From contig CAZBJT010000001.1 in NCBI GenBank assembly GCA_964492215.1, positions 1-25,305 of the forward strand: a stretch of 25,305 nt of DNA, written 5' to 3'. Position numbers and translations under genes: made by a program. This document shows positions 6,001 through 25,305 of the stretch, piece by piece; position 1 is the first letter of the stretch; each line of letters begins with the position of its first letter. The DNA is from an uncultured Planctomycetales bacterium. GTDB taxonomy: Bacteria; Omnitrophota; Gorgyraeia; Zapsychrales; Fredricksoniimonadaceae. The notes beneath the pieces were generated by a model. That model was not told the origin of the DNA. It saw nothing but the letters and a program-made list of their open reading frames with translations, and searched no databases.

Positions 6001-9000
6001 TGCCCCTAATTTCTTGATCACCGTACGTTCACCCACTGTGAAAGGATTACCTTTGGTATCAATGGCCCGGATGGTCGACGGCAGGATTTGATCAGGTTGT
6101 AAAATCGATTTTTTAGGTAATGCATATTCATCCGGCCAGCCAGAAGGAAATCCCACGGTCTGGACGGCTAAATCGAAATCAGCAAATTGCCCCGTAGGAG
6201 CTGCGACTGTTTGTGTGACAGGCTTAACGGTCTTAAACCCGAAGAAAATAAGCCCGCCATATAAGACAGCAGCGAGAATTAATAAAGCCACTGAGGCATG
6301 CGCTGCAAAAATAAAAACATTAAATACCGCCGTGGCAAATGCCAGCCATTTAGTCCACGGCTTTACGACCAATGCGGATTGATTATTTTGGTTTAGAAAA
6401 ATAGCTGAGGCAATAGCACTAAACGGCGAGATCATGCCCATCATGAATGTGCGGGTGGCTTCATTGGGGAAGAAATAAAAAACAAAACCGAACCAAATGG
6501 TCAAGACGATAAAATTCAACCGGGTCGCGTAAAGCATCCCCCGTGATTTCTCTTTAATGATGGCGCTCAATAAACCTTTTGTTTTGTGTTTGGCTTTGAG
6601 TTCTTCCCGCCGGCCCCAACTCTCCACCCAGCCATGCACAATCAAACTTAAAATAATGACGGAAATGGGTGACGTGGTGATTTGATCTGCCAGACCGCCC
6701 AGCCATAACGGCAGTGTTGCGGTCCATATCTCATAAGTCAGCGCCCAGAACCATCCCATGATGCCGACACTGAGCGGCAGCACCAACAGCTTCCACCGCC
6801 ATAAAGGTTTCCAGGTCACTTTTCCCTGCAGGCGCAAATGGATCAATTGGCCGATATATTCGCCTAATGTGATGAATATGGCCCAGCCGATGATCCCTTT
6901 AAGGCTGGCTACCATCAACAAGGCTTGCCACCCGCCTATATAAGAGAAGCCGGCTGGAAAAAACATTTTCTGAAATGATAATGGCTTGATTAGGTATTGA
7001 ATGAGTCCAAAGATGATCGCAATGGCCGTAAGGACAGTGGCGAAGAAGCGATCACCTATTTTTTGACGGGCGGCCTGGACTTTATGGTAGACACCCAGCA
7101 GCGGATTTCTTGAGACTGCTTGCTGCTGCATAGCTAATAGCGTCGGGTGTTCTGGAGTAAACAAGTGCGTGATATATGTATTTGTTACCGGTGTGCCATG
7201 CCATACGGCTTTGTTGTAGTCAGCATGGACTTTGGCGGCGGCCTTGATGCCTGCCCAGCGGACATCGGCCGGACTTTCTTGAGCAAGGAGTGCCGCTTCG
7301 CGCGCATGCTTATAGGCAAAGTCTGTGGCTTCACCTAAGGCTAAAAGTACATCAATTTGTGGGTTACTCGGATCTTTCACCCACCCTTGGTCTTTTACAT
7401 AGGCCTCAACATGGCCCAAAGCAAAATCCATAGGATTCCCACGTCTACCATTCTTGGCGGTGCGGTCGATCTCCTCTGTCAACGCAGCGACATCAAAAAA
7501 TTCATCCACCCTACCTTGTTTGATGGCCGACTCAAAGTCTTGCTTGTGTTTTTGCTGCAGCCCTAAGGGTGCAGTCCTTACTGCTGCACGCGCGGTAAGC
7601 AAATAAATAGCATATAAATGCGCTGTCTCAAAAGGCCGCACCCTTAATTTCTTCTGACTTAAAATCGCTGCGGTCAAATCCATGGCCCCATGAGAGCCGG
7701 CAACAACATACGGTTTATTCCAAGCCAATACTTTGGCCTGCGGCATGGCCTGGATCAATTGAACCGCACCCTGACCAAAACGATCCAAGGTTTTGCCCCG
7801 GCTGTCGCCATCATGCCTTTGCGTAAACGTGGGGCGGTGATCTTGTTCATAGGAATCCCGCCATAAAACAAAAGGCATGTTCCAAACTAACCGGTCAACA
7901 TCAGCCAATTCAGGACGCAAATGACCCTTTTCATCCACGATATTATCCGCCAATACTGCCTGCCTCAAGGGAATGCCCAAAAGCCGGGCCGTAAATTTGG
8001 TATTGGCTATCTCCATGGGATTAATACCCAATACACTGATGTCGCTTTTTCTTCCCCTTAATCCAAGGAAGACCGCCCAGGTATCAAAACCAGCACCGGG
8101 GCCTACAACCATAACATGATGGGATTCTTTTAAATCCAATGCTAAAGGTCGGTTGGCAACGATCGCGCTGTAATATTCCGCGTCTACATTTTCATCCCCG
8201 TTATTCTGTCCGAATACCGATGGAAAAATCGGAACAATGGCCCAGTGTGCACCATCATGAGCATCAGCCATGCCCCATTTAGATAATGCATCCATGCTTT
8301 TGGCCCATACTTGAAACTTGCCTGATTCAAGACATAGGCGCGTAAGGCGATAAGACAGATTACCTATACTCACCATATTAGAATCGACATTAAAATTGAC
8401 CAGCACCTCTTTTAATCGGCCCTGCATGAATATATATTCCTGATGATTGAGCCGCCAAATATTTTTAAATTGTTCATGGCCAGGCTGGGCTACTTCTGCG
8501 TGATAAGACGTTAAGTCAATGTAAACATTGTTAGGCTTTACCAGGCATCGCTTATCTGGAAAAATACCAAGCCAACGTCCGCACTCATCTTTGACTAACC
8601 AATAGGTCAAATAATGCTGATGGTCTTGCCCATAAAGCTCACGGGCCAGCCATGACCAGCCCGGGTGAGGTTTATTGCTGTTAGGCAATAACTTCTCAAG
8701 CGTGCATTCACCCACACGCAATGTTTGCAGGACATTCATGTGATTGAGTTGCAATGTTTCGGCGATGGCGGAGATTGGTGTGTCTTTAGACTGAAGATAT
8801 TGCACTGCTTGAGGTTTATTCTTATTATTAATCTGCGTAGTAATCATAAATGGGAGACTGGCAGCTAAAACTGCTCCTCCTGCTGCATGCATTCCCAGCC
8901 AAACATATGTAAATACAACTGCAATAGCGAAGAGTAGTTTTACCAATAACTTCTTATTAGTCTGCCTATGCATGGCATGACCTACAAACAACGGTTCAGC

Positions 9001-12000
9001 CCGCGGATTTTCTTTTCTCCACTTTTCCAAATCATTAATAATCTGCACATTCAAAAGATTAAGTATCCTGCAGCTGCCTCCTTCACGGGCCAGTCGAAAA
9101 GCCCGGGGAGAAAGGTAAAACTGTTTATTTTGCCAATAGGCATTCGCTTCGACCGGCTCCGCCGGACAAAAACCGAAATGCTTGGTTAACGTGTGCAATA
9201 AAAGAATATTTGCTGCTTCAGGATGGACACTCTTTACATCAGGATAATAATCAAAGAATAGATCTAATAAAAACTTCATCCGTCCCCCTCTAAAATCGGG
9301 GTCAACGTTGGCCCGGAGCAAAGCAAAAGCACCTTTATCATTCTTAACAGCACAAATAGTCATGGCTGGTCCGGACATACGGTCTGCAGAGCTTGGCTGT
9401 GGCCATAGTTCCAAATATCTATGTTCTTTCCCATCAATGACCGCCTCACGGGTGGTCACCGTAAGTTCATGCATCTGTCTGAATCTGTCCTGTACCTTAA
9501 TTGTGACGTGAGTGATCCTGGTTTTTCCAGATTTCAACTCTGCCTTCGCCAACTGCAAATTCCATTTGATTGATGATGTCTTTCCTACAAGATCTATCAA
9601 TAAAAACTCTGTTGCCTTGTCATATGATGTATTGAGGATGAATGAAAAGAGTTCCTGGATCTTCTGTAATGCGAGCTCTACTTCTACTAAGGAAATTTCT
9701 TTGTCCCTAGCAAGCAGAACATTCAATTCTTTCTGTAAAATAAGAAATCTCTTCTGCGTCTCTACGTGGCCAATCGCATCTGGGTTTGATCCGAACTTTT
9801 TTAACATTTGATCAAATACGAACTTAGCATGGGCTATTTTTCCAATGCTCTCTGGCAATACAAAAAGTAACGACACTTCGAAAGCCTTCAAGTCCCCCTC
9901 TTTAGCAAAAACCTCTAGAATGCCAGCCAAAATATTTGGAAGCATGATTGTGCCGATAAGAATGAAATAGGTGGCAGGAGAAATTAAAATAATGAACGGC
10001 AGGCAGAAGACAAAAATCGCAACGATGAAGTTTGCGATGAAACCGGCTAATAGCGGCGCACCGCGTATGCCATTGGCTTTACCTTCAAAGAAAACCGCTG
10101 ACCAGGTCTGTTGACGCCACAACTCTTTGAGGACTGCAATTTTCTGACCGCGCGGGGCGTTCCATAAAATCTGTACACTGGCAGCCAGCAAATGGCCCAA
10201 CTCATGCACGGGGGTGGCTAATGTCACCAAAGCTACAGTGCGCACTAACCGATTATATTTCCCACCTAATTGCACAACGTGAAGATTAGCATGACTTTCT
10301 AGAAACCCTTGAGCCCCTTCGTTCTTAACAATAGATTTACCGCTCTCCTGTGTCTTAGAAGACTGTGGTAATTCGATCCATCCTGCGGATTTTCGGCCGG
10401 GGTCAAAAGCCAGGATTACTGCATTTGATTCACCTTGCAGGTCATGGTCTACAACAAATAAAACAGGCCGTCGTAGAAGCTCAGCTTCACCACGGATAAT
10501 GCCCATTAATTCTCTTATATACACCTTATACAATTCTTTTTCCGGGGCCGATAATTCTTGCCTCGGACTAAATCCTGATTCTATTAATAGAGGATCACCG
10601 AATATGGTTTCCGCAACATGTCCTGAAAGAACGCCATGCAGCCATATCGACATACTAATTGAATCATTTTTAACTGTGATCCATTGATGCTTTTTAAATA
10701 TCTGCACTGTTTTGCTAGGGATAGATTTCTTGGGTAATCTTGAGAATATCTTCCTGGTAAACCATACTGATTGCCAACTCAGCCAATCGGCTTTATTTCC
10801 CGGTTTACCGGCATATTGCTTCATTTGGCGCATCCCTGCTTTAATGACTTGAGCGAAATGCTTATGTGCTTCTGGACTTAATAATGAAACAAGTACTTTT
10901 GCCCCATCGGAATAATCTTTCTCCAAACGCCATGAATACCAAACAATGTTCCAGAATTGATGAAACACAATCCGATCATTTAACTCAAAACCCCGAAGCA
11001 TTGTCCTTAAATCCCCAGCTGCCTTTCTAAAATCAGGGTCATGGGCATTAATATATTCTGTTTCGCCGGCCCATTTTTTCTCGCCCCAACATTCCTCTTC
11101 TTTCGACGCAGCGACCAATATTTCAACAAGACCCTCTTCTTCTGTTTGAGCCTTCAATACGGCCTGATAATGTTCCGGCAACATGCCTGGGGCGCTCAAT
11201 ACAGGCTGCATAAGGTGGGCATCAAAGAACTGCGCTGCCCGCCTAAACCCGCCTTCTCTATATATCGACGTAAAATAATGGTTCTGACCGCTGACAATCT
11301 CGACTTGAGGCGTATCAGTTAATTGGTAGCGTCTACCAATTAATTCTTGCATGGCTTTGATTTTGGGTTGGATGAGGCGATCTTCGCGGCCTAGGAGGTA
11401 AGAGAATCTCCCTGCATTTTTTTGTAAGCGTTGTTGCTCTTCGGGGGTTTTGGCGGTTAACCAGGGCATTTGTTCTTCTAGGGTGAGTGACGCATTAGGC
11501 TCAAACAGGGCACGGAAATGATGGGCGTAATTCTTATAGCCGCCATTGCCTTTAAAATAATAATCGTCGGGACTATTGTGTTCCCAATAGGACAGCACGT
11601 CATCTGATTGGGCAGCCATTTTGCGGCCGAACACGCCGCCTAAACTAAATCCGGCCACACCGATACGGCTGGCGTCGATCTGCGGGGTGACTCTTAAGAA
11701 CTCCATGATGGCCATGGTATATCCGCTCATAAAATCAGGACCATTGATGCGGCCCTGATTTCTGCCTTGGCCGGGGAGATCAGGACGCTGCTCGGCAATA
11801 CCTTTGCCGATTAATTCTTCTTCTAAAAGGTATAAATATGGGAATTCTTTATTGGCCATGATGCCGGGGAATGTGACGACAACAGCAAAAGGAGCTTTAT
11901 GTGATGTAGCCGCAGGGGTGATCAAATAGGCTGGGATATCAAGGTGTCCGTCAAATGGGATAGATGCCTGGGTCATCACCGGCGGCGAGCGGCCATGCAC

Positions 12001-15000
12001 CTGATATGCTTGCGCGCGGGCTTTAGGGTAAACCGCTTCTAACTCATCTAAAATCGGGCCTTGCTCGGCATCACTTTGAATTAGAAAATTACGTGCCAGG
12101 TAAAGATAAACGTATTTCTTGGCCGCATCGGTTTCTTTATCGGCATATTTCTTCCAGGTCTTGGCCCAAAGCAGCACATCATCGGCGTAACGCGGATAGA
12201 ACTCAAACGTTGAAAATTCATGAATGATATCTTGGGTAACACGGACGGCGGTTGCTTTGTCCGCGCCCATGATGCCCGTATAACGGACCACCTCATGCAC
12301 CAGCTCGACGAATTGCCAGTGCATCATCAGCACATCTTCTTTTCTGCTTTTATGCCATGCCAAAAATGGTTTGCCTTTTTCTCCGGTTACTTGCACTGTG
12401 ACAGTTTTATTAGCAAAATTCTCGGGCGTCATGAGCGCCTTGACTATGCAGGTGACATCCTCAAGAATGACTTCCCAATCACTGCCATAGAGCTTCTTTA
12501 CCTCTTGATGCCAATTCCTGTTTTCAGCAATGAAATCAAACCCGCGATCTATCTGTTTGCTGACTCCGCCAAATTCTTGAGGCACATAGCTCTCAATCCC
12601 CCCTGCTTGCTTACGTATGGTGATCTGCGGTTTAAAGATATTCCTCAACGCAAGCGGCCCGGCCAAAGTCCGGGTCATGTCCCGTCGATGTGGGGCCTTC
12701 TCAAACGCCGGGCTGCGATGCACCTCAGCCCCGGCCATGGCTGCTTTGGTTAAAAACACCGGCAGATCACAATTCATGTCCACAACGGTCTTGCCGCGTA
12801 ATAAGGAAAATTCCACATTCAACCGCTCATTGCCCCGTAATCCCGGGACCATGAAATTAAACACGGCCTGCGCACCGGCGACAAATGTATTCAATGAACC
12901 TGGATGACCGAGATAAATGCGGACTTGAGGGGTTTCTATGAGGACGTCTTTCACTAATTGCTTGGCCTTGCGCTGATCCGCATCAAAGACAAAAATCCTG
13001 GCTTCCGGTGCATGACGGCTGATGGCCCGTGCCCAAAAATGCGCCGAGGCACCCGCCCCCAGAAAAACCAAGTCCTTATGATTATTTAGTCCCTTGCCTA
13101 AGCCCTGCAAAAATTCACTCGCCCAGGTTTCTCTTCCGTCAGCAATAAATTGCTCATGGGAACGCTTAAGATCTTCCAAATTGAATCTGTCTGGCCGTAA
13201 TGCCCTTTGCACAGAAAATCCCTTCCCATAGCAATAAGCCAAAGACGAACTCATAGGGCCATAAAACAAGAACCTCGCCAAACCAGGTTCACCTTGCCGA
13301 TGGAAAAATGGATAAATCCCTTTATCCCAAATCCAAGTACCTTCGTACACTCCTTTTACACGTGGACCTTCATCACGTAATGCATAGAAACGTAAAACCT
13401 CCAAAAATGAGAAACGATCTTTCCAACGCTTATGCTGTTGAGGAATATTCTCCCGCTCTTGCTGTGTCCCGCGAAGGACGGACCAATCATCGATAGTCAA
13501 TTGATTTCCTTTAAGCCAGGCATGGGCTTGAGCTTCTAAGAGGTCTTCCACTAAGAGACGTACTTGGTTCGTAAATTCCATATGCGAAGACTCTGTCTCG
13601 ATCAACATCTTCCCTAACGCGTAAATGGATGCGCTGGTAGCGGCACGTATGGTAGAGTTAGGATTATATTTTTTATCAGGAAAACGGGCGGTGAATACCT
13701 TCTTGGCTTCTTTTAAATCAACTGCAGGACATTCAATATTTTCCAGAAGCGCCCATATTTTATAAGCCTTATCTACAGGCAGGTTACTTAATTGATAGTC
13801 GCCTACACTCATGCGCTCATCTGCAATAGGACTGGATAACTTAAGCATCATGGGATGGAGCGTGTCTTTAATGCCCGGGGGCATGATCAAATCTCTGGAT
13901 CGTTTTGGTTTAAATTGGTCGAATATCACAGCTAACTCCGGCGGGGAAGGCAAATCTACCAGACGGGTCAATTGATCGCTGTAGCTGGCATTAAATGCCC
14001 GTGTGGCTTCCACCGCCAGGCGATGGGCCTCTTGGGGCGAATGACTTTGCATGAATTCCAATTCTGTGATTTCATGAAAAGCAATGACCTGCAATATTTG
14101 TTCGATGTCTGTGGAGCTGGTACACAGATGTATCCATCGATCCGCCACCACATCGGAGGAGAAATAAATCGCCAGGACATCGTCTTCTTTCCGGGCCCAG
14201 ATAAATTCCTTAGGCGGCCCGTAAGTATCCAGCGGCTTGATACATTCTCTAAATGAAATCTTTTGCCCTTGAAATTCTTTAAAGAAATTAAATACCGGTT
14301 TCCACGCTTGTTGATCATCAGCTAATGCCGCCGCTGCCTGACGTTCCTCGATGGTCATGTTTCCCCAAAAGCCTGCCGTGCCACCTTTAACTTCCGCATC
14401 TTTCTTAAATGTATTTTCATTGCTGCCCACCCAGGCATTCTTATCTCCGACTTGCGCTAGGGTCAAGGGTTCGCCGTCCATGGTCTTATCGGCTTGCCTT
14501 TTACTGACAACATGGTAGATGATCTGCAAGCCATCTTCGTCGAGGTACTCGCCGGTTTTCTTTAAAAAGACTTTCTCTAAAATATCATCTAATTCTAAAG
14601 AGCGGTGAATCAGCGCTGCGTTAAATGTTACTGTATGAATATCGTTAAAGATGCGCATGCTGTGCGGTAATTGCTGTTTTAACTTACGACGCAATTCACG
14701 TGCTTGATCAAGCTGACCGTGTGACTCCAAAAATTTAAGCAAGCAATTCGGATACTTGCGGGCTAAGCTTAAACCAGCAGCCATGATCCGTTGCCTCATG
14801 GCTGGTTTTGAGCCTCCTCCCTTCAGAATGGCCCTAATTGTCCCAAGATCGACTTTTGCTTTTCTGGCTATTTTGCGCCGACTTATTTTGCGCTGTCTTA
14901 TTTTCGGGTCGACGAGACTCTGTAAATATTCGCGTAGAATAGTATTGGGGTGTTTCTGCTGCTTTAATTTGCTTGCTACATCAAGCAGGTGCCTGCGGAT

Positions 15001-18000
15001 GGGCGGCTCGGTCTTGTTGCCTTGCCGGGCATTTATAACTTCATCCACAACGCTGTATGAAACTTTAGAAATGCACGAAATCTCCTTCATGGAATATTCC
15101 AATGCCGAATCCCGGATTTGGCGACGTAAATGTTTTTGAGGACTATCTTTCAGGGTATCCAGCGCCGTCTTAATCTTCTGATATGTAAAGAAAGTGGGAT
15201 GGCTGCGGCGACTTAAGATAAGGGCGATCGTTTGCCGCCTCACACCGGACAATTTGCTAATTTCATCTTGTGTATGTTTCAAGTCGATCTTTTTTTGAAT
15301 GTCCTCAATTAATGCATCCAATTGCTCGTGAGAAATAAGCGGTCCGGATGGTTTATGTGCAGGTCTTTCTCTTTTAGGCAGTTTAGCTACCTTGGCTGAT
15401 ATTTCTCTCGTTAATGCCCCATTTTTTACCTCTCCAGATAGCAGTCGCCTCAAACGACTAGAGCTGAGACCAAGATGTGCAGCTATTTCCAGCAATGTAT
15501 AACCTGCCGTTACTGCTTTATTAACGGCTTCCTTGCAGTGAACTAAAGACAAACTTATATCTTCAGGAGGCAGTTGGAATCGTTGTGGCTGTTGAGGCAT
15601 TGCTACCGCAGAAGGATGATCATTTGGAAAAAGAACTTCTAAAATAGCCTGGCGCCAATTAAATTTACGCATCTGCGTTTTCCTATGTGCAGGTATAATC
15701 TCTACATAATCTCCATCGATAGATTTTACATGGCCACCCACTAACCCCGCACCCGCTGGACCTGGATACCGTATTTGATCTCCCTCTTTAAGTTGATATC
15801 CTCTTTTTATTGCGTCCATCAACGGATGCCACTTTTCTAAATCCTCGTCTATGTGCAACAACAAACCTTTCCTTGCCTGATACACATTCCAGTTAAGCTC
15901 GAAATGCTTATCACTGGCGGCTGCCATGGCTATTCCGTTTACTTTGCGTTGAACTTCGGCAGGTAACGTAACCGGTACACGGCTGGCAGGATAAAAATCT
16001 CTCAATGCCAGCTCACGGGCTGCTTCATAAGCTAAATCAACAAGGGTCGCCTGCTCATATAAAAAGTCCCAATCAGCTTGTTTGGCATCCCGCCAATCCA
16101 TCTCAATCAAGTCAAAAACCCTCTTATGTTTTAAAGCAAATGCCCGACGGGAATTTTCATCTCTTTTATAGCGACGGGGTTCTTCTTCTCCTCTTGCCGC
16201 AAGGCGCATATATTCTTTAACAGCAGCATCACCGGCAGCTAATGCGATTCTCAGCCCCGGCGCATACGCCTGTTGCATAGCCAATAAATGGTGACTGTCA
16301 CCATTTATTTTGCGTTGGATGCGGGTGATATGGTTGCGCCAATTGATGTGGAGGATAAAATCGCCGTCGTCCCAGGCGCGCAGGGTTTCGAGCATTAACG
16401 GAGGGCCGTTTACGTCTGGTTTTTCAGAATTGACGCAATCGTATATATTAGCGGCCCGCACCTTTTCGAGAGGTTGGACGGACAAAGCTGCAGCTGACTT
16501 TAATGTCTGCGCCATGGGCAGGTCGATATCTTCAAATCTATCGCCGACAATCACGGTACGGCGCATATCAAAAGATGTTTTGAAATATTTCTCCAATACT
16601 TTCCACTTGCGTAAATACCTTAAGCTTTCCCCTTTGTCCCAAACAAATTCTACCGATCTTTTAGTTAGGGGATCTCTTATCTTTATTGTTTTGCGAGGAG
16701 TAAACAAAAGCATGGTTTGGCGTACGAAAAAAGCAAAAGATCTTAATAAAACATCCAGATTAATAATTTCCCGCGTCAATGGCCATGGGGTTATCGGCGC
16801 AAATGTGCCATTACGGACATCAGTGAGTCGATGGGCATAAGTAACCCGGGACAGAACGATCACTCGGGAACGCACATCTTCATCCAACAGGCTGATCCAA
16901 TCCTGCCAAATGTCTTTCTCATCATCAAGACTATTAATGACCTGTATACCGCCAGTGTGCAAGAACCGGTTGTATTCTTTGACCAATTCTTCTTCTGTCT
17001 GGAAACGCCATTTCCCTCCCTCTTCCACCGGCTCATAAACCAGCGTGCCGCGAAAATCATCGACGCGGATCATTGATGCCGATGAAGTGCGCATATTGAT
17101 CAAACCCAAATCATAGGCTAAATGTTTAAAGACACGGGTCAAATAGCCTTGAGATAAAGGCACGCCATAGGTGAAAAATAAACGCAGGGCTTTTTGCTGC
17201 GGGGGGGCATAATCATGCCAGCGGATCAATGTTTCCGTATGGCCGAATGACCGGGCCGCTTCTTCAATAAAGACAGCGCCGACAAAAACAATCGCCGCCA
17301 ATGCTATCAATTTCCACCAGATGAAATATCCGCCAACAACCATGTGTAATATCAATTGTGAAATACCCACTACTAATAAAATCAAGGCGGGATAGCGGAA
17401 CATGGGTAGCATGGCCTGAGGAGAGTCCGTTTCTGTCGGTTGATCTTTTGGTGCCCTGGCCCAGCCTTTTTCGGCGATCTGTTCCGGCGTAAGACCCAAT
17501 TCACGCAAATAATGCCAATAGGTCGGCCACCACTCCTTAGCGAATGAAATCGTCGTGTATACCGTTGGTAATTTACGTGCTTTCCAACCCTTAAAAGTAA
17601 GATCAGGTGCGGCTGAGCCTAAATTATCGCGACCCGCCTGTAACAAAGCCTCTTTGGTCCATTTCGTTGCACCCTGGCTTTCCCTGGCACTCATGTCCTT
17701 CTGACGCTTGGCCAAAGCTTCTTCATCTGCCAATTGATGCTGTTCAGCATAGCGGCGGACTTTCCGACGGAAAATGGATTTCCAATCCCGGATCTTCTGC
17801 TGTTCTAATGACGTACCGCCATGCCGATTTTGCCAATTCATACGGATAGCATCATGAGAACTTTGCTTCAAATACCCCTGCAAGGCGCTATCGTTCAACA
17901 GGACAAATTGCTCATCCTCAGTCAATTCAATTTTCATCTGCCTCACTACGTTCAAAGGCATACATAACTCTGCCATTAATGCCTCAAGCCCGTCTTTGCC

Positions 18001-21000
18001 CTCTTTGACAATTTCCAATGCCGCCTTTAACAAACGTCGTATTGATTGAGACGAAAGGTCTGCAATGGGCCCTGCTAGAAGATTTTCCGCATCCAAGGTT
18101 CTAATCACTGTTACTGGGTCAATATTTTTCTCACGATTGACCCCTGTTAATAACTGCAAAATTCCTCGGTGCACAGCCAAAAGATACGGCCAGGTCTTTA
18201 ACATTTTCTCCTCGGTAAAACCTTCCGTGTATGATGCGGGATATGTTTCCATCACCCGTGCATGGATAAGCTTGATATCATCTATCGTAGACGGCACCTC
18301 GACATGCAAAGACCGACGCCCGGTTATGACAAAACCCAAAATCATCAGCACCATATTTTTACTAAATTGCTCATCGCCTAGAGCGGTATACAAGTAGCCC
18401 TCTATTTTTAATGCTTCTATCGCACCGTCAGATAATCCACTCAACGTCTTGATCTCTTCCAGCGAATATCTTTCTTGGGATGATTTATACACTTGATTCC
18501 AAATGGCGCGAAAATGGTCAGGACGGTCGGTGGGCAAAGCGCCAAAAATAACAGGCAATGTTTCAATCAAGACATCCGTAAGATCATCTTTATGGTGGGC
18601 TTCAATAAGGCTTAGCGGCACAGCCCTGTTGTGGACCTTCGAGAATTGCCAACGGGCACGTGGTGCTGCATCAGGATTTTCTCGCAACTCTTTAAGCAAG
18701 TAAATTTGAACTTCTTGGGTTGGTTCATATGTTACAAAAACCCCGTCCATCGTGACTTCAGGTAAGGCTGGAACAAAAAATAATGCGTATCGGAGCTTCT
18801 TCTGTTGGCTGGAGACGACTTCTGACTTGAAACATTCTTGGCCATCTAACCCTTGGCCTGTTGTAAACCATGCTCCTATGCGATCGACCATGGCATTGAC
18901 TTCTTCACCATTCGACTTTCCCGCACGATACTCTAAAAGAGAACCGGTTAATGCCTTCTTGCCCAGGTTAAGAGGACTTTCTTTAACAGGTTCAGTGGTG
19001 ATCGCTGCTTCAACAACAACGGAAGCAGGGACAATAACAGTGGCATCGGATTCTTCTGGAGCAGGCGGAGCCCTTGGCGCTGCCGGCTCAGGTGTGGGTG
19101 ATACTAGCTCTGGTTCAGACGCAGGTGCAAGTACAGGTAGTGGTTTTGGTAAAGAATTGGTAGACGCTACCAATTCTTTTTGGGCTGCCGGCGGTGTTCT
19201 GGGTGAAGGGATGGGGGTGGTGCTTGTTGGGGGGATGATTTGCCGGGTATGGCCATTGTCTCTCATGAGTTTTACAATCTGTCCCTTTTTCTCGGCGATC
19301 ACATGGACGACTTCCCCTTCAAAACGCATAAACTCGCCTAGAAAATCATGACCATCAAATATAGCCAATATCTCTACCGGATAAGCCCGACGGCTAAATG
19401 TGACAAGCCCGGAATCCCGACGTGCACCTTGACTGCCTTTGGCAAAAACGAAACGTAATGGACTGCCTCCTACTACCGGGATTTCGATTACACCCTGGTG
19501 CAAGCGGGCAGAATAATCAGAGATATCCGACAACTCTGCCCCATTACGATACCATGTCGCCAAAGCAATGGATTGTGCATCGTCCAGATCAGGCTTAATT
19601 CCTGCGGAGGCTGCATCAGCGGCCGCCCCAGAGGCATCTGTAACAGTCTCTTCTGCAATACCAGCTGCTGGTTGCGGATCAATAAAAGAATTGGTAGACG
19701 GCACCAATTCTTTTGCTGGGGCGGGGATGATTTTGGCTTTTGTTCCGTCTTCCATGACTTGATGCACGATGACGTTCTCTCCCCGTCCTGTAACTACGAC
19801 ACGGATCACTTGGCCTTCGAAACGCATAAACTCGCCTAATACCATCCAATGACCTGACACTTCTCTTAACACCTGTAACGTCTCTACGTTATCAGAATAA
19901 AACTTACGGCTTAGCGTAACTTCACCGTCGGGTATGTCATTGCCTGTATTGTCTTTGAATAAACGGAATTGTAATAAACTAAAATTCGGCACCACGATGT
20001 TAACATCCGAATAGACCGGCCATTTTCGTTTGTCCATTTCGATCAGACTTGCAGGCTTAAAAGGGGTGCTCTCAATATGGGCCGGATAATCTCCAAATGA
20101 AAGTGCATGACCTTCCTGATGATACCAACGGGCCAATGCGGGAAAATCAGCATTGCTCATACGTAATTCTTTCATCACTTCCTGTATAAATGCATTGTTT
20201 TTCCAATCAGGATGTTCAGCCAAATTAGAAAGCAAAGCGAAGCGCGCACCTGGTAAATTCTCAAACCTTATGGCATTTCTTACCTCAACCCATACGGTTT
20301 GCGGGCTCTTGAGTTTTTCATCTTGGTAAACATCAATGACCACTTGCGCAATGTCCACATCAATATCCAACTTGGCATTAGCTTCATCCAAATGGTCGAC
20401 GATACGCACAAAATAATCTAACAAAGCTGAAGCTTTAGGTGCGGTCAATATTTGATGGTTACCGGCATGGGTACGAAATATATCAATGCCGTCGCTTATT
20501 TCCTTCAAGTTTTCCATGGTGGGTGGATTTAGAAAATTAGGGATATCGGTAAGCTGCACCGCAGCAATTTGGGCTTGAGTCCCAGCTATATCTAAAGCAC
20601 TTTTAAGTACGGCGGATTTACGGGCCACACTTTCGGCCCTCTCTTGCTGCACAACAACCTCGCCTTCCTTCGTTGCCATGGGGACTTGCATGTTGCTTAA
20701 AACGTTGACCAGCGCACGGCGACCATCCTGCTTCACCTTAAGCAGACGTGCCTCTTCATCCCGAAGAGCTTTGGCGCGGCGTTCTTCACGCTCTTGGTCT
20801 AACAGGCGCATCAAGGCATCGAATTCTTTTAATTCCTCGGGGAATCCTTCTAAAGCTTCACGCACAGTACCAACCAATGGCAGGGCTTTTGCATCATGAT
20901 CGCCGCTGATCAAGGTCTCGATCTCATTACCCCGCTGGGCAACTAGGGTATCGCGCACCCGACGGGCTTCGGCTTTTTCCGCTGCTTCTTTGGCCTCTTT

Positions 21001-24000
21001 AGCTAAACGCACATCATCACGCCGTTTGAATTCTGCCTGACGTAATATTTTTACCTGTGCATTAAATGTGGTGAGCTCATTGGCATCTTTAAGTAATCGT
21101 TGTGCTTCCTGGATCAATTCATTGACTTGTGCATCTTCGATTTCTTTAGGTAATGATGTTTTGATAGCAGCAATGGTTTCATTCACATACCCGGTGATGG
21201 CAAGTGCGCGCATGGGTTTAAGAATCTCTTTGCGGCGGTTGCCCGCTTTTTCCCATAGCCCATGCAACAATCTCCAGGCTTTCTGCATCTCACCTTTTTC
21301 CATATGCAAACGGCAATCGGCTAAATTTTGTGAATCAGAAGGTATAGATGTAGTGGTATTAATCACTGCAGCAAACCATGTCCCTATGGCCTGAAGGGTA
21401 CGGGCAAAATCATCGGCGCTCTTAACACCGACGACAGGTTTATCCAGGCGTTGTTTCCATGCCCTTTGTTGTGCGGCCATTTGCTGCATGCTTTCAGCTT
21501 TGGCTTCAGTCAACGGCTGAACAAAAGCTTCGCTTAAAAAACCATTAGTCTGATCTGAACTTCCAGTCAAGGCCCCACGGGTTGCATACCGGCTGCTCAA
21601 GGCCTGCTCAAGGGACGTGTCGTACAAAGCTTCATAACGCCCGCGCACAAAGTCATAAGCACCGGCGACATTATGAGATTTAGGGCCCAACATTGCATCA
21701 GTCAGGATAGCTATGCCAAGTTCAAAGAAAAATGCCGGGCGCGTACTCTCAGGCAAAGATTTTACTAAATGCCTTAATTCAGGCAATGCAGCCAGCCATG
21801 CCGGGGCTAATTGTTTGTCGAGTTTTTTGGTAAATTCTTCCATACCGTCGGCAGGTATCAACCAAGCCCCTGCGGCATCACGGGCTAACCCTAGAGCAAT
21901 AAGCGGCCAATACATTTGGCAGGCATCGGATTTTATTAATTCGACGATTGTTCTCTTCTGCTCAAGGATCTTCCAACGCTTTAAAGCTTCAGGTTCGGCG
22001 ATATCCCATTGGGCGATTTTATTGAAGGTGCTGGAGATTTCCGGCAGCTTGGGGACGGTCACTTCCACCGTGGCTGGTACTTGCTGTACGGGGGGTTGAG
22101 CATCCTTAGCCCCTTCTGGGTCTGGATTCCCGTTGTCACGGGAATGACATTCAGGGACAATAACGGCAGCTTCAACTTCCGCTGTTATAGGTGCTTCAGG
22201 CTTTTCTTCTTTAGCTGGTTCTGGTTGCTCTGGGGCCGGCTTCTTTGGCTCTGGTTCTTTTGCAGGCTCTGGTGTTTTCGGAGTATGGACTTTTACTTCT
22301 TTCATTTTTTCCACCGGCAAGGCTTCTTCATACTGAGTCAAATCGCCTAAATCAATACCCTCGGTATGCCTTAAGGTATTGCGTACAATCTCCCGGGCTT
22401 CGGGCCATTCAATGGGTTGCGCGCTTTTCTTCGTTACTTTCTTACGGGCAGCAAACTCTGTTAAAACACCTTCGAGCAAAGGCAAAGGTAATTGCCCAGC
22501 TACGTGTGCTTTAGCCTGTGCTTGTTTTGGACGTGCCACCGTATCGCTTTGATAATCCGGCCATAACATTTCCATCACCGCATAACGCAATAATTCCAAA
22601 GAATTAATATCGGCAAACATCCGGGAATCTTCCACGGTAAGGGGATGGCCAAAGTCTTCCCTGGATAACTCATCTGCCAGGCGTTCCGATGCATTAAGGG
22701 GGTACGGGACCATTTGCACAATATAGCCATGATTGTCAAAACCAGCCTTCAATCCCTGGCGCTGCTCGTCGATGCTGCGCAGCTGTAACGGCCTGGCTAA
22801 GGCCCGGGCTTGCAGCACATAAGCCATGGCATCCAAATACCCTTTCACATTCCCTAATAAAAGCGCATCCCGGGCTTTGTCTTCCCAATAATAGGCGCGT
22901 GTCAGATAAATCCAACTATCTAATTCAGGACGGATATGTTGGATGCGTACATTGATCGTACTTTTACTTCCATTATCGGCCAGGCGCTTAGTTAATTGTT
23001 CCTGCAGTGCAATCGCATAATCGTATAAAGCTACGGTGAATGCTTCGCTTTCATTGCGCGCGATGATATCACGTAATTTATTCCAAGCATTACTCAATCC
23101 TGAGGCAATGACACCTTGCTCATACCTGCCAAAAATTATTTCTAGTTTAGTTTGATTCTTAAACGCGATTTGACGCATAAAAGTCATATTCATCTGCTCG
23201 CTGCCGACGCGGTCGTTTAATTGGTATGTCTTCTCATCGGATTGATAAAGGATAGGACGGTAATCATTAGGGACCATCAAATACACAACCGCTTGTTGGG
23301 GCTCAGGAGAATCCGTGACTTGCCGGACTAATTCATTGACCTGTTCATCCAAAGCCGGACGCAAGGCCTCTAAATTTACCTTGTGGAATGAATCCACCGG
23401 CAGCACGACATGGCGATTACCCTTGCCGCCTAAATATTGCGGTTGAATAAACCCAGCTAAAATATCTTGCGGGATACCTAAACTTTCTAACCATGCCACC
23501 GCTAACCGGGGCGCTTGGGCTTTTTCAAAGAGCAAAGATTCATCCAAACCACCGGTCACCGCATCATCAGCTTTATGCTTTTCTAAACTGCGGATAAACT
23601 CCAAAATTTGATCATCGGTTAAATTGGCACAGAGCCGATCAAAAGCCCTGGCTTGCTCACTGATACTTTGGGGACGGATATAATCAAGCAAGATATTCCA
23701 TAAGGCCTCACGGATAAATAACGGCAAAGCAGCCTGTACATCTGCCTCGGGTGTCAGTGTGCTTAAGTCTCGCTTAATCGCCGCTTGGACTAATTTAGAC
23801 TGGATGGGAAAATCTTCTTCCGTATATTGCCCTGCCCGTTCCACATGAATACCTTCTTCAGATAAAAGACCGTCTAAGTCCAAATATTTATTGGTCAACA
23901 TCAAACAGCGCGAGCGCCCTTCTTTATAATCTGCCATCTTCTGTGCATATTGGTTTAAGAAGGCTATTTGATGCTGATGAATGCGGCCGGCATAATACAT

Positions 24001-25305
24001 ACGGGCTGCATTCTCGCCTGCATAAACATCCCAGTTTCCCCTGCGTAATGCATTTTTAGAAGTGTCATTAAAAGCACCGGCGATAGTGGCCTCCATAATG
24101 GCACGATGAAAATTCTCGGAAGGTAAGGCATGGTCAAGTTGGATCCTAAAACCAGGCCAAGTCTTTTTCCAAATAGGAAGCTGGGTGGTTAAATATTGCA
24201 TTAAAGCCTTATGGAATTCGGTGTGCCCCAAACCTGCCTGCTCAGCTTCAGATATGATGAAGTTCTGATCGTCATTCATAGGCACTTGAACATACTTCAC
24301 ATTATTTCTATAAATCTGCTCAGTCTTCTTTGCTTCTATGCTCAAGTCGACAAGTTCCAAAGGTTTAGTTGTGCCGAGGATCTTTTGCCTAAGTTTTGAT
24401 TTTCCGTCAACCCCTTGAATGGATTTGAGCGCATAAAAAGGAACCTGCACCGTCAATGTTACCGGTTCCTCCGATGGAGGCACAGAATTCAAGAGCACCG
24501 TAATGGCCGTATCAATATTCGCACGCGCCTTTTTAAAATCCTCCGCCCCCTCAATATCAGCATACACCCGGGCTAAATGCGGACCAGGCACGGTCACGGC
24601 CGATGACTGCGCAGCCCCATCAATAGGTGTCGTCATAGTAGCCGCCAAAGAATTGGTAGACGGCACCAACTCTTTTGTAGCTTGTTCTAGTACGCATAAG
24701 GGCTCTTCGGGCAAAGCGGGTTGGTGCGTTCTGCTCCAGGCTAAAATGTCTTGGGCCGTCCATTCATATTTATTGTCCGCGGCATACCTGGCTTCATTAT
24801 TCTTGATCAAAGTTTTAATTTGATCTGGATCAGCAGCTTTAACAATTTTCTGTACGGCATGGCTCCATGCCCTGAGGGGCATCATGCCGTTATGCTGGAA
24901 TGCACCGAAGGCGTGTACTAAACCTAATAATATTACCTGCCGGTATTTCTCAGCCTCGGGCATGTCCACCTGCCATGTCCGGGCAATAATCATATTATCT
25001 TGATAAGGGATTTCATCTAAACGTAAACCAGATGCAAGAATGGATTTTCCCGGAATCTTCATCTCTAATGCTTTAACGACATCTTCCGTAGAACGATAAT
25101 ACGTAAAAGGCTGCCCCAGCAGGACATGGCCAGGTTTTTTCAAGAGCTTATTTAATATTTCAACGTGCAATTGGTCAAAATACTCACATGTCTTAACAAG
25201 GGCATCCATTGACGCGATCCTGTAACGCGCATAATTGGCTAAATCCCCTTTATGCCAGAAATCAAGGGCCGCATGCTCAAGCACCAAGTAGCACACGCGA
25301 CTGAC
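1..25305 (-). CDS. Internal fragment (>=8,435 aa, open at both ends) of a giant multidomain membrane-associated protein
   Basis: Manual translation of the minus-strand frame over all lines found no stop codon, from VSRVCYLVLEHAALD (25305) to ...DWIKIGLSDL (1). Many family motifs and TM segments fall in this single frame. No start or stop lies in the window. Confidence 0.97.
130..700 (-). other. Zincin-like metallopeptidase domain (HExxH) within the giant CDS
   Basis: QLFAYIAYQVARHEAQHHLL (HEAQH at 190-204), preceded by strand-like VYGHFYIDTD and followed by LADEEAL, a candidate third-ligand Glu. Boundaries approximate. Confidence 0.6.
1270..1790 (-). other. Degenerate SF1 helicase C-terminal RecA-like domain (DNA2/NAM7/UPF1-like, AAA_12-type)
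   Basis: Motif order SHWVISELVGRL...FNVVDT...YINQYEAEVIAGRIVSLLKQG...HVIVLYPQQVKQM...VLIVGMTRS...AGY...IDAISFA...VCVVGDITALK parallels the AAA_12 pattern, but motifs V and VI are degenerate. Confidence 0.7.
4000..4240 (-). other. Zincin-like module with HExxE...H variant
   Basis: ALVVYLTAKLWHEAAEILMSRAPGVDWRDPH (HEAAE at 4054-4068, His at ~4009). Confidence 0.4.
4680..5400 (-). other. Hydrophobic/transmembrane block C-terminal to the kinase-like domain
   Basis: Hydrophobic stretches VVGGLVLMLPLELGYIY, MGLFFYGIVFIP, LIELLSLFLFYLIKIPGIDFASILMLIHGG, VAGVFFNGAIRVGITLW, AIMAAAFSFLPIIGSFLG. Confidence 0.6.
5390..6030 (-). other. Protein-kinase-like (Ser/Thr kinase fold) domain
   Basis: Gly-rich loop VIKKLGAGLASVVYLVKDAQGREYVEK (5941-6020), hinge-like YDFVQG, catalytic-loop-like TDPLNINALGNIFI and Mg-binding-like MVLVDI (~5401-5415). 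Confidence 0.75.
6250..7060 (-). other. Multi-pass membrane block, possibly Mpv17/PMP22-like
   Basis: About 6-8 hydrophobic helices. KGIIGWAIFITLGEYIG and IWFGFVFYFFPNEATRTFMMGMISPF resemble my recollection of Mpv17/PMP22-family N- and C-terminal patterns. Confidence 0.45.
7650..8240 (-). other. Class I SAM-dependent methyltransferase domain (HemK/MTS-like)
   Basis: Motif I HVMVVGPGAGFD (8089-8109), motif II-like VLGINPMEIANT, motif IV VDRLVWNMPF (7870-7884, NPPY/F-like), N-terminal IVPIFPSVF. Confidence 0.75.
8830..8950 (-). other. Transmembrane helix/hairpin
   Basis: KKLLVKLLFAIAVVFTYVWLGMHAAGGAVLAASLPFMI. Confidence 0.6.
9070..9520 (-). other. GNAT-like acetyltransferase domain
   Basis: Motif A-like ALLRANVDPDFRGGRMKFLL (9283-9306) and motif B-like LTKHFGFCP (9169-9180). 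Confidence 0.55.
9850..10260 (-). other. Membrane-embedded M50/site-2-protease-like metalloprotease domain
   Basis: Hydrophobic helix ending in TPVHELGHLLAA (HELGH at 10192-10206), LLAGFIANF (AGPxxN-like), further TM helices, then LPN...EGD as a candidate third-ligand Asp. Confidence 0.7.
11240..12150 (-). other. Alpha/beta-hydrolase domain (FrsA / 2,6-dihydropseudooxynicotine hydrolase-like)
   Basis: WAKTWKKYA...SIPFDGHLDIPAYL...VVTFPGIMANKE...DLPGQG...IDASRIGVAGFSLGG (nucleophile elbow 11635-11652), LLGREDRLI (Asp ~11380), SGQNHY (His 11278-11280). Confidence 0.85.
11319..11343 (-). repeat. REP-like palindromic hairpin copy A (opposite orientation to B-D), translated in frame
   Basis: ttaattggtag-cgt-ctaccaattaa: perfect 11-bp stem with 3-nt loop; its core is the reverse complement of copy B. 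Reads LIGRRYQL in the CDS. Confidence 0.75.
12250..12480 (-). other. Degenerate zincin-like module (HE without second His)
   Basis: KPFLAWHKSRKEDVLMMHWQFVELVHEVVRY; the RKEDVL segment matches RKEDDVL of the module at ~14180. Confidence 0.35.
12690..13270 (-). other. Shikimate-dehydrogenase (AroE)-like NAD(P)-binding Rossmann domain
   Basis: DLVFLGAGASAHFWARAI (13042-13062), IFVFDADQRKAKQL, AVFNFMVPGLRG and KTVVDMNCDLPVFLTKAAMAGAEV follow the AroE C-domain motif order; the N-terminal substrate domain is not clearly recognisable. Confidence 0.6.
13980..14230 (-). other. Zincin-like module with HExxE...AH motif
   Basis: YGPPKEFIWARKEDDVLAIYF...LQVIAFHEITELEFMQSHSPQEAHRLA (HEITE 14062-14076; EAH 14023-14031). 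Confidence 0.5.
14818..15504 (-). other. Array of four tandem helix-turn-helix motifs
   Basis: GYTLLEIAAHLGLSSSRLRRLLSG (15433-15504), HTQDEISKLSGVRRQTIALIL (15214-15276), YSMKEISCISKVSYSVVDEVI (15034-15096), IARKAKVDLGTIRAILKG (14818-14871), with basic linkers. Confidence 0.75.
16490..17075 (-). other. HAD-superfamily-like domain, variant motif I
   Basis: IRVDDFRGTLVY (17041-17061; DxDGTL-like), GGIQVINS (motif II-like), TVIVGDRFEDID (16528-16554; motif IV). Confidence 0.55.
17250..17400 (-). other. Two transmembrane helices ending in EExxR
   Basis: YPALILLVVGISQLILHMVVGGYFIWWKLIALAAIVFVGAVFIEEAAR. Confidence 0.6.
17490..17664 (-). other. Single homing-endonuclease-associated-repeat-like unit
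   Basis: KWTKEALLQAGR...GWKARKLPTVYTTISFAKEWWPTYWHYLRELGL resembles the 'wt.e.i....lPs..ti...f.sW...l...G' pattern as recalled. Confidence 0.4.
18970..19260 (-). other. Pro/Ala/Glu/Thr-rich low-complexity linker
   Basis: IIPPTSTTPIPSPRTPPAAQKELVASTNSLPKPLPVLAPASEPELVSPTPEPAAPRAPPAPEES. Confidence 0.85.
19151..19179 (+). repeat. REP-like palindromic hairpin copy B, translated in frame
   Basis: aaagaattggtag-acg-ctaccaattcttt: perfect 13-bp stem. Reads KELVASTNSL in the minus-strand CDS. Confidence 0.85.
19230..20150 (-). repeat. Tandem duplication of an uncharacterised ~160-aa module
   Basis: ALARWY..GH/ALATWYRNG; VTLSRK/VTFSRR; LGEFMRFEGQVIRV/LGEFMRFEGEVVHV; both units end in IIP. DNA 19316-19340 and 19814-19838 are 24/25 identical, offset 498 nt. 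Confidence 0.8.
19684..19714 (+). repeat. REP-like palindromic hairpin copy C, translated in frame
   Basis: aaaagaattggt-agacggc-accaattctttt: 12-bp stem. Reads KELVPSTNSF. Confidence 0.85.
20200..20420 (-). other. Possible degenerate PD-(D/E)xK nuclease-like domain
   Basis: DIAQVVIDVYQDEKLKSPQTVWVEVRN: D...ExR in place of D...ExK (20275-20295). Confidence 0.3.
20640..21330 (-). other. Charged coiled-coil/helical region
   Basis: E/K/R/A-rich helices such as LAKEAKEAAEKAEARRVRD and LLDQEREERRAKALRDEEARLL. Confidence 0.6.
22020..22330 (-). other. Pro/Glu/Lys-rich low-complexity linker
   Basis: TPKTPEPAKEPEPKKPAPEQPEPAKEEKPEAPITAEVEAAVIVPE. Confidence 0.85.
22780..23100 (-). other. TPR-like helical region
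   Basis: SWIYLTRAYYWEDKARDALLLGNVKGYLDAMAYVLQARAL and FTVALYDYAIALQEQL show TPR-like amphipathic patterns. Confidence 0.35.
24100..24480 (-). other. Possible PD-(D/E)xK (restriction-endonuclease-fold) domain
   Basis: PIQGVDG...LELVDLSIEAKK (IEAK at 24328-24339) fits G-x-D...E-x-K. Confidence 0.4.
24647..24675 (+). repeat. REP-like palindromic hairpin copy D, translated in frame
   Basis: aaagaattggt-agacggc-accaactcttt: one stem mismatch; one substitution from the core of copy C. Reads KELVPSTNSL. Confidence 0.8.

Follow-up and report, generated by a model that had tools for sequence, protein, structure and literature searches.

The recurrence of one short DNA palindrome within the coding sequence of a single, very large bacterial gene raises the question of whether the palindrome is a working part of that gene or a repeat that has lodged in it. 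The case is found in a 25,305-nt stretch of contig CAZBJT010000001.1 (hereafter the window, meaning the whole stretch that was analysed). The window is occupied from end to end (positions 1 to 25305, minus strand) by a giant orphan gene, a single stop-free frame of 8,435 codons that is open at both window ends; a scan for open reading frames (ORFs) found no other long open frame. An earlier note, made by reading the sequence, had described this gene and, within it, four copies of a hairpin resembling the repetitive extragenic palindromic (REP) elements of bacteria. The gene is indeed real in the sense that it is stop-free across all 25,305 nt, and the hairpin, here called family 1, occurs four times in the window against an expectation of 0. 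Having weighed the alternatives, we give a probability of roughly 60% to the reading that family 1 is a REP-like dispersed palindrome, passively carried in the giant gene and translated in frame; the interpretation proposed in the earlier note is partly supported.

Family 1 has the form AATTGGTAGACG(CT/GC)ACCAATT. We searched for it with the pattern AATTGGTAGACGSYACCAATT, tolerating up to 2 mismatches. The pattern matches at 11321-11341 on the minus strand and at 19155-19175, 19689-19709, and 24651-24671 on the plus strand, which recovers all four copies where they had been described. The first three matches are exact, and the fourth (copy D) has one mismatch, which weakens its stem. There were no matches in 100 dinucleotide-preserving shuffles of the window, and a search of the window at up to 8 mismatches revealed no further degenerate copies; a partial match at 10531-10550 was rejected as merely a common "EKEL" stretch. 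Three copies are perfect palindromes, at 11319-11343 (11-bp stem), 19151-19179 (13 bp), and 19684-19714 (12 bp). After codon shuffling, the gene contains a mean of 0.08 stems of at least 11 bp, and the real gene lies about 50-fold above this value. Family 1 stems measure 9-13 bp and their loops 3 or 7 nt, inside the ranges known for REPs. The core reads AATTGGTAG-ACG-CTACCAATT, and a run of T usually follows it on the ACG strand. Because the unit is itself a palindrome, a copy that appears inverted differs from the others solely in its 3-nt loop. The RNA hairpins predicted on either strand have energies of -10.8 to -18 kcal/mol, with z-scores down to -5, well under those of shuffled controls.

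The four copies differ in their setting. Copy A (11319..11343, minus strand) has an 11-bp stem and no T-run, and it is translated as ELIGRRYQL (aa 4654-4662), in another frame and orientation than the other three, with the ACG-loop orientation on the coding strand. It is enclosed by an alpha/beta-hydrolase domain (11266..11985, minus strand; aa ~4441-4680; nucleophile motif GFSLGG with Ser4554, and His4676), in which it lies two residues ahead of the strand bearing the catalytic His. Copy B (19151..19181, plus strand) retains the canonical core; its 13-bp stem closes on a loop of 3 nt, and the plus strand bears TTTTT. Read from the minus strand, this copy encodes KELVASTNSL (aa 2043-2052), in the linker behind the second of two duplicated modules. 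Copy C (19684..19714, plus strand), with the apex variant GC for CT, a 12-bp stem, and a 7-nt loop, gives KELVPSTNSF (aa 1865-1874) in the linker behind the first of these modules. Copy D (24647..24677, plus strand; palindrome span 24647-24675) combines the apex variant of copy C with one stem mismatch and gives KELVPSTNSL (aa 211-220) within an Ala/Thr/Pro-rich stretch. The claim that three copies encode KELV(P/A)STNS(L/F) in linkers thus holds for copies B, C, and D, all of which lie in coil-like linkers rich in Pro, Ala, and Thr. AlphaFold single-sequence models (predicted local distance difference test scores of 34-40) are too poor to serve as evidence, and they show only copies B and C in coil after beta-rich modules.

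All in-gene copies preserve the reading frame. Four of the six reading frames through the element are open, of which the in-gene copies occupy two. The T-runs (4-5 T) reported after copies B-D are present on the plus strand, which is the antisense strand of the gene; on the sense strand, no in-gene copy presents a hairpin with a U-tract behind it. The modules beside copies B and C are in tandem, about 170 aa long, and 31% identical: module 1 (19648..20160, minus strand; aa 1716-1886) has copy C at its end, and module 2 (19114..19587, minus strand; aa 1907-2064) has copy B. As DNA, the two modules contain two islands of near identity, one encoding GEFMRFEG (26/30 nt) and the other being the hairpin (27/30 nt). 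Since copies B and C stand at equivalent sites of duplicated modules, the four copies represent at most three independent events. Copies C and D share the two-base variant at the stem apex, which includes a synonymous change, and copy B has the canonical form that is found outside the gene. That C and D have this variant in common, though the module duplication makes paralogues of B and C only, is better explained by copying of the DNA than by plain descent along with the modules.

The earlier note had argued from the conservation of synonymous sites, which keeps the stem, that family 1 is constrained as nucleic acid. This is borne out: the constraint acts on the nucleic acid. The coding-strand sequence of copies B, C, and D is AAA GAA/G TTG GTR SCG TCT ACC AAT TCT TTN. 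Given the peptide and the codon usage of the gene, identical codons in all three copies at K, L, S, T, N, and S would arise with a probability of 7e-7. Furthermore, only 0.25% (codon-weighted) of the possible encodings of KELVASTNS form an 11-bp stem. The conclusion follows from three facts together: the codons are too uniform, copy A is read in another frame, and the exact 21-mer occurs untranslated elsewhere.

The family 1 motif was not found in 185,579 species-representative genomes nor in viral contigs, and a scan of metagenome contigs of the Joint Genome Institute gave seven matches (L001-L007). The exact canonical 21-mer is present in four of these contigs, namely L001, L002 (the same locus as L008 and L009), L005, and L006 (Ga0265319/Ga0265320), none of which has any further similarity to the window. 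In L002/L008, the hairpin lies between convergent genes, 2 nt past a dienelactone-hydrolase gene and 8 nt from the end of the converging gene; in L006, it is immediately behind a stop codon; and in L005, it is about 200 nt behind a gene. In L001, a small gene has its final eight codons and its stop within the hairpin (...PPKKELVASTN*), which lies 13 nt ahead of a shikimate-kinase gene and is identical to copy A across 27 nt. This small gene (1172-1615, minus strand) encodes a protein with a hydrophobic, signal-peptide-like N-terminus, and the hairpin is read there in the same frame as copies B-D. In L001, L005, and L006, the stem is followed by 6-8 T. The flanks differ among the family 1 copies, the T-run follows most of them on the ACG strand, and the polarity of the asymmetric 3-nt centre is fixed relative to the T-run. 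A motif found nowhere else would have refuted the reading of the earlier note; this refutation fails, since exact copies occur in non-coding positions on four metagenome contigs (the one in L001 overlapping the end of a gene). The exact copies elsewhere speak for a generic, genome-wide repeat and against a sequence made for this gene.

The remaining three matches were rejected as members of the family. L003 is a one-mismatch variant at a contig end, from an organism of different composition, and the match in L004 falls by chance within the coding sequence of a transglutaminase-like gene. L007 resembles a tRNA-Leu (2600-2700, minus strand; acceptor, D-arm, and T-arm) and may be a degenerate tRNA gene, although neither ARAGORN nor Rfam calls anything there. 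The left arm and loop of family 1, GAATTGGTAGACGC (19154-19167 and other copies), have the very sequence of the D-arm region in bacterial tRNA-Leu (confirmed with the tRNA-Leu of E. coli), which explains this chance match.

The host of family 1 is probably an uncultured bacterium related to Omnitrophota, a suggestion that draws on three lines of sequence evidence: the relatives of the L002 hydrolase gene, the agreement in composition between the contigs and the window, and the richness of this phylum in giant genes. The closest relatives of the hydrolase gene beside the L002 copy are proteins from Candidatus Omnitrophica/Omnitrophota metagenome-assembled genomes (MAGs), with 63-68% identity. 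The G+C content of the four contigs is 0.44-0.49, compared with ~0.46 along the whole length of the window. The correlation of tetranucleotide frequencies with the window is 0.76-0.85 for L001, L002, and L008, against 0.68-0.82 for 1.5-kb pieces of the window itself and 0.40 for two unrelated matches, on a measure that discriminates weakly (one unrelated contig of 57% G+C reached 0.73). Omnitrophota are a phylum noted for giant genes, and the words palindrome, hairpin, and terminator do not occur in two papers on these genes. Related Omnitrophota loci with a hydrolase gene of 68-70% identity contained no motif, no comparable hairpins, and no similarity to the giant protein. Separately, an Omnitrophota-like contig from the same sample series (L010, 9854-13848; L011, 9713-13707) carries a gene of 3,029 aa that has no Pfam match and is unlike the protein of the window.

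How far family 1 agrees with known systems can be judged by its size, placement, and tags. REPs are palindromes of 20-40 bp with stems of 5-13 bp, loops of 2-20 nt, and a terminal GTAG (or CGTC), often accompanied by genes of REP-associated tyrosine transposases (RAYTs); most are found fewer than 20 bp beyond the 3' end of an ORF, with the neighbouring ORFs convergent or unidirectional (PMC3733652). Family 1 resembles these elements, and the REPIN-RAYT systems, in being a stem-loop of 21-31 nt that contains GTAG and has an identical core at dispersed loci; its four outside copies have the extragenic placement at 3' ends, with occasional copies in frame. It differs in that GTAG/CTAC stands at the top of the stem by the loop, CGTC spans the loop on the other strand, and the flanks have no conserved tag. 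All eight copies are single, without the inverted doublets or clusters of REPINs; the unit includes the T-run; no RAYT was found for family 1 in collections that lack the source genome, and the window contains no RAYT-like ORF. The REP-like description of the earlier note stands as regards a dispersed hairpin translated in frame; as regards the tag it departs from classical REPs, in which GTAG is at the foot of the element and not beside the loop (PMC3733652). From its sequence and placement, family 1 appears to work like a REP, while membership in the strict GTAG-REP/RAYT class is not established.

Precedents exist for the translation of such repeats. Intragenic REPs and Rickettsia palindromic elements (RPEs) in frame are on record; notable cases are uvrA and other repair genes, and Opitutus terrae, a bacterium of the Planctomycetes-Verrucomicrobia-Chlamydiae group; intragenic REPs of uvrA have been reported in O. 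terrae and Thioalkalivibrio (PMC3733652). Like family 1, the intragenic GTAG/CGTC REPs and RPEs lie in proteins, often in linkers or loops, at times with two or more per ORF, or at the end of an ORF (Di Nocera et al. 2013, PMC3733652). RPEs, in the account of Ogata et al. 2000 given in PMC3733652, share with family 1 that they are palindromic repeats translated in apparently functional proteins, but they measure ~100-150 bp. The host of family 1 is an orphan gene of more than 25 kb in an uncultured free-living lineage, for which the databases contain no orthologue. Miniature inverted-repeat transposable elements are also small, non-autonomous repeats that can be in frame in genes; unlike family 1, with its 21-31 nt and no consistent target duplication, they have 70-300 bp, terminal inverted repeats, and target-site duplications. 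Intrinsic terminators can be built from repeats, as by the inverted pairs of DNA uptake sequences (DUS) in Neisseria or of uptake signal sequences (USS) in Haemophilus. Family 1 is similar in presenting a repeated hairpin with a T-run just behind genes and in-gene copies in preferred frames. It differs from these terminators in that its in-gene U-tracts are only 4-5 nt long, the stem base is A+T-rich, and the sites are not called. Moreover, DUS and USS are asymmetric motifs of 9-12 nt that are frequent as single copies in either orientation, and in the window half-sites of family 1 (AATTGGTAG and longer) occur only inside the palindromes, so that the unit is the hairpin itself and a DUS/USS pair is ruled out.

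The window holds one more perfect long hairpin, AATAAATGGTGACTGTCACCATTTATT (16283..16309, plus strand), here called family 2, which is unrelated in sequence to family 1. It has a perfect 12-bp stem and is translated as KINGDSHHLL (aa ~2999). Its 19-nt core occurs in more than 119 stretches of species-representative genomes, compared with about 4 estimated by chance. Among the matches listed, several MAGs of high G+C content, with the labels Burkholderiales, "Enterobacteriaceae", and Bdellovibrionales, contribute at least 9-13 loci each, and there are further ones in a Planctomycetota MAG, two Omnitrophota MAGs, and others; at the high-G+C loci, about 90 of the 101 classifiable copies lie where the coding phase changes, i.e., between genes. 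Several copies form inverted pairs 50-70 nt apart. In four MAGs (L038, L044, L049, and L093), the palindrome lies beside, or flanks on both sides, a gene of ~220 aa that matches Pfam Y1_Tnp (1e-13) and NCBIfam NF047646, REP-associated tyrosine transposase (80.1 bits, for a cutoff of 80). In the Burkholderiales MAG SMAG_U11853 (L047, ~4678-4696), family 2 is in frame in uvrA, the gene in which intragenic REPs had been reported before, and encodes NGDSHH (...FAE-NGDSHH-FPVHRF...). The copy separates the UvrA interaction domain from the DNA-binding domain, and its frame is the one used in the window. Because it flanks RAYT genes, lies between genes, and recurs in MAGs, family 2 is, as judged from these contexts, a bona fide REP-RAYT repeat elsewhere, of which the giant gene holds one copy in frame. 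We found no relevant mention of its sequence in the literature. The two families have a common architecture, with 13 of 21 core positions alike, and no family 1 sequence occurs in the family 2 loci.

The AATGGTGACTGTCACCATT palindrome of family 2 (L013-L131; 19-21 nt identical) is also found in genomes labelled Acidobacteriota, Parcubacteria, Yonathbacteria, Lachnospiraceae, and Clostridium; over all its matches, the local G+C content ranges from 0.29 to 0.72. To account for so wide a distribution, a REP-RAYT system may have spread horizontally, MAGs may carry wrong labels, or the palindrome may have an unrelated use. In Clostridium aquiflavi (L088, 4711-4860), 3-4 tandem GGTGACTGTCACC palindromes lie in the intergenic region between two genes of choline-binding-repeat proteins and have the look of an operator array more than of a REP.

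If family 1 is a REP-like passenger, its normal home would be a few bases behind the 3' ends of genes, where the transcribed hairpin and its U-tract could end or stabilise transcripts. Copies would spread as DNA. Judging from family 2 and from published systems, the most likely agent would be a HUH/Y1 transposase (RAYT) that recognises the hairpin and works on single-stranded DNA; gene conversion between copies would be an alternative. The in-gene copies would then be passengers that survived selection, not purpose-built parts, and they may have persisted for three reasons. The element can be read through in four of its six frames, two of which are occupied by the copies; no copy puts a hairpin with a U-tract on the sense strand, so that the mRNA of more than 25 kb would not be terminated; and three copies sit in unstructured linkers and the fourth in a presumably tolerant segment of an enzyme domain. 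The giant gene may gather such elements as a very large target with much weakly constrained sequence. The mobilising enzyme of family 1, the choice between insertion and conversion, and the neutrality of the copies are the parts of this scheme that we infer.

Several observations weigh against this account. Neither a RAYT nor any other transposase is tied to family 1, its GTAG is internal and next to the loop instead of terminal, and no inverted doublets (REPINs) were seen. The compensatory stem changes that the earlier note would have expected among homologues are few and not significant. In 6 of 8 copies there is no change anywhere in the 21-nt core or its loop, as would be expected from sequence-specific recognition of any kind and not from that by a RAYT alone. 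Copies B, C, and D and the L001 copy agree in frame and in peptide, so that a role at the peptide level retains some plausibility. A net insertion is not apparent at copy A: the spacing from Ser to His in its hydrolase is 122 residues, compared with 120 in PDB 9w30 (in an alignment whose second block is weak alone), and since the domain is not longer than this solved homologue, copy A may result from conversion or replacement rather than simple insertion. Copies B and C could stem from one copy through the duplication of the module, in which the GEFMRFEG island is also 26/30 nt identical. Finally, the copies known outside the window amount to only four loci, and it is from sequence resemblance that we infer a common organism for the metagenome contigs and the window.

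One alternative is that the hairpins are selected elements of the giant transcript or locus, such as antisense terminators, barriers to 3'-exonucleases that would stabilise an mRNA of more than 25 kb, or translation pause sites behind protein modules. In all three linker copies the T-run is on the antisense strand, the RNA hairpins are stable on both strands, copies B and C are at the ends of both duplicated modules, and REPs elsewhere have been considered RNA elements (PMC3733652). The antisense terminators suggested in the earlier note are accordingly compatible with the conserved T-run, but a terminator scan is silent at the in-gene sites, where the U-tract has just 4-5 nt and is partly paired, and the same orientation bias is expected more simply from the loss of copies that terminated the sense transcript. 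Moreover, there are only 4-5 hairpins per 25 kb, copy A lies within a domain and has no T-run, and the identical copies elsewhere indicate a generic genome-wide repeat rather than one specific to this gene. We consider this alternative unlikely. The idea that the repeats are points of module shuffling is not supported: only one pair of modules is duplicated, copy A is inside a compact enzyme domain, and copy D is beside no recognisable module.

A bolder proposal, to which we give slightly less credit again, is that recruited REP-type hairpins punctuate the long transcript and, separately, that the family 2 REP-RAYT system crosses phyla. If so, the hairpins would be stops to antisense transcription, internal stabilisers of the mRNA, translation pauses at module ends, or marks of module junctions, and their functioning in a long transcript would bear on how bacteria transcribe and translate genes of tens of kilobases. 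The presence of family 2 in Burkholderiales-like bacteria, Omnitrophota, Planctomycetota, Parcubacteria, and Clostridium could reflect such a crossing, which would contradict the current view of REPIN-RAYT systems as vertically inherited.

It is improbable that a dimeric DNA-binding protein recognises the 21-bp palindrome as a site (of operator, partition, or nucleoid-protein type) scattered over the chromosome and also present inside genes. The invariance of the core, including its loop or spacer, and the scarcity of covariation are what such a site would show; parS and Noc sites demonstrate that sites of this kind can lie inside genes, and the palindrome of family 2 in C. aquiflavi forms an operator-like array of 3-4 copies upstream of a gene. 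However, all four outside copies of family 1 are at or behind the 3' ends of genes, three of them with a long T-run on a fixed strand, the asymmetric 3-nt centre has a fixed polarity relative to this run, and there are no isolated half-sites.

Still more doubtful is that KELV(A/P)STNS is a short linear peptide motif, e.g., a processing or recognition site in the linkers of a giant protein resembling a polyprotein and at the C-terminus of a small secreted one, and that the palindrome is an accident of one ancestral coding sequence. Three copies are in the same frame in unstructured linkers, and the L001 protein ends in PPKKELVASTN. The untranslated copies in L002/L008, L005, and L006 largely refute this reading, and against it also stand the other frame of copy A, the codon identity (P ~7e-7) and the small fraction of encodings (0.25%) that would form such a stem, and the occurrence of the peptide in no homologous protein family. 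That the repeats are mere left-overs of internal duplication or chance palindromes can be dismissed, for although copies B and C do sit in a duplicated module, copies A and D are outside any internal duplication, the shuffles gave 0 matches, and exact copies are found in unrelated contigs.

The gene that carries these repeats encodes an orphan protein. Word-seeded searches of 5.8 billion proteins found no homologue of the N-terminal 2,435 aa or the C-terminal 3,435 aa of the giant protein, and an exhaustive HMMER search of 1.84 billion representatives found none for aa 1090-2100. The recognisable parts are helix-turn-helix repeats (HTH_3) at aa ~3270-3500 and the alpha/beta-hydrolase segment at aa ~4440-4680; a match to the helicase-like AAA_12 near the C-terminus is weak. 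By reading of the sequence, the protein also has HExxH motifs, a Rossmann-like GxGxG stretch, several hydrophobic blocks that look membrane-spanning, and a weakly helicase-like end. The tandem pair of modules is the sole internal duplication apart from a weak similarity between aa 3008-3168 and aa 5914-6061 (nt ~15802-16284 and 7123-7566; 26% identity over 166 aa, E = 2.6e-4). Searches of the window gave no match to phages and plasmids with megablast and no family in an Rfam scan.

REPs in frame within genes were already known, and family 1 is a further example of REP-type repeats lodging in tolerant parts of proteins. The case means that a single gene can be enough to recognise the dispersed palindromic repeats of an uncultured lineage and that giant orphan genes accumulate and translate such repeats. 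They can account for short "peptide motifs" conserved within giant proteins, into which too much would otherwise be read, and they could be used as markers for binning and for strain typing of the host organism. In addition, they offer a way of dating the duplication of modules against the spread of the repeats.

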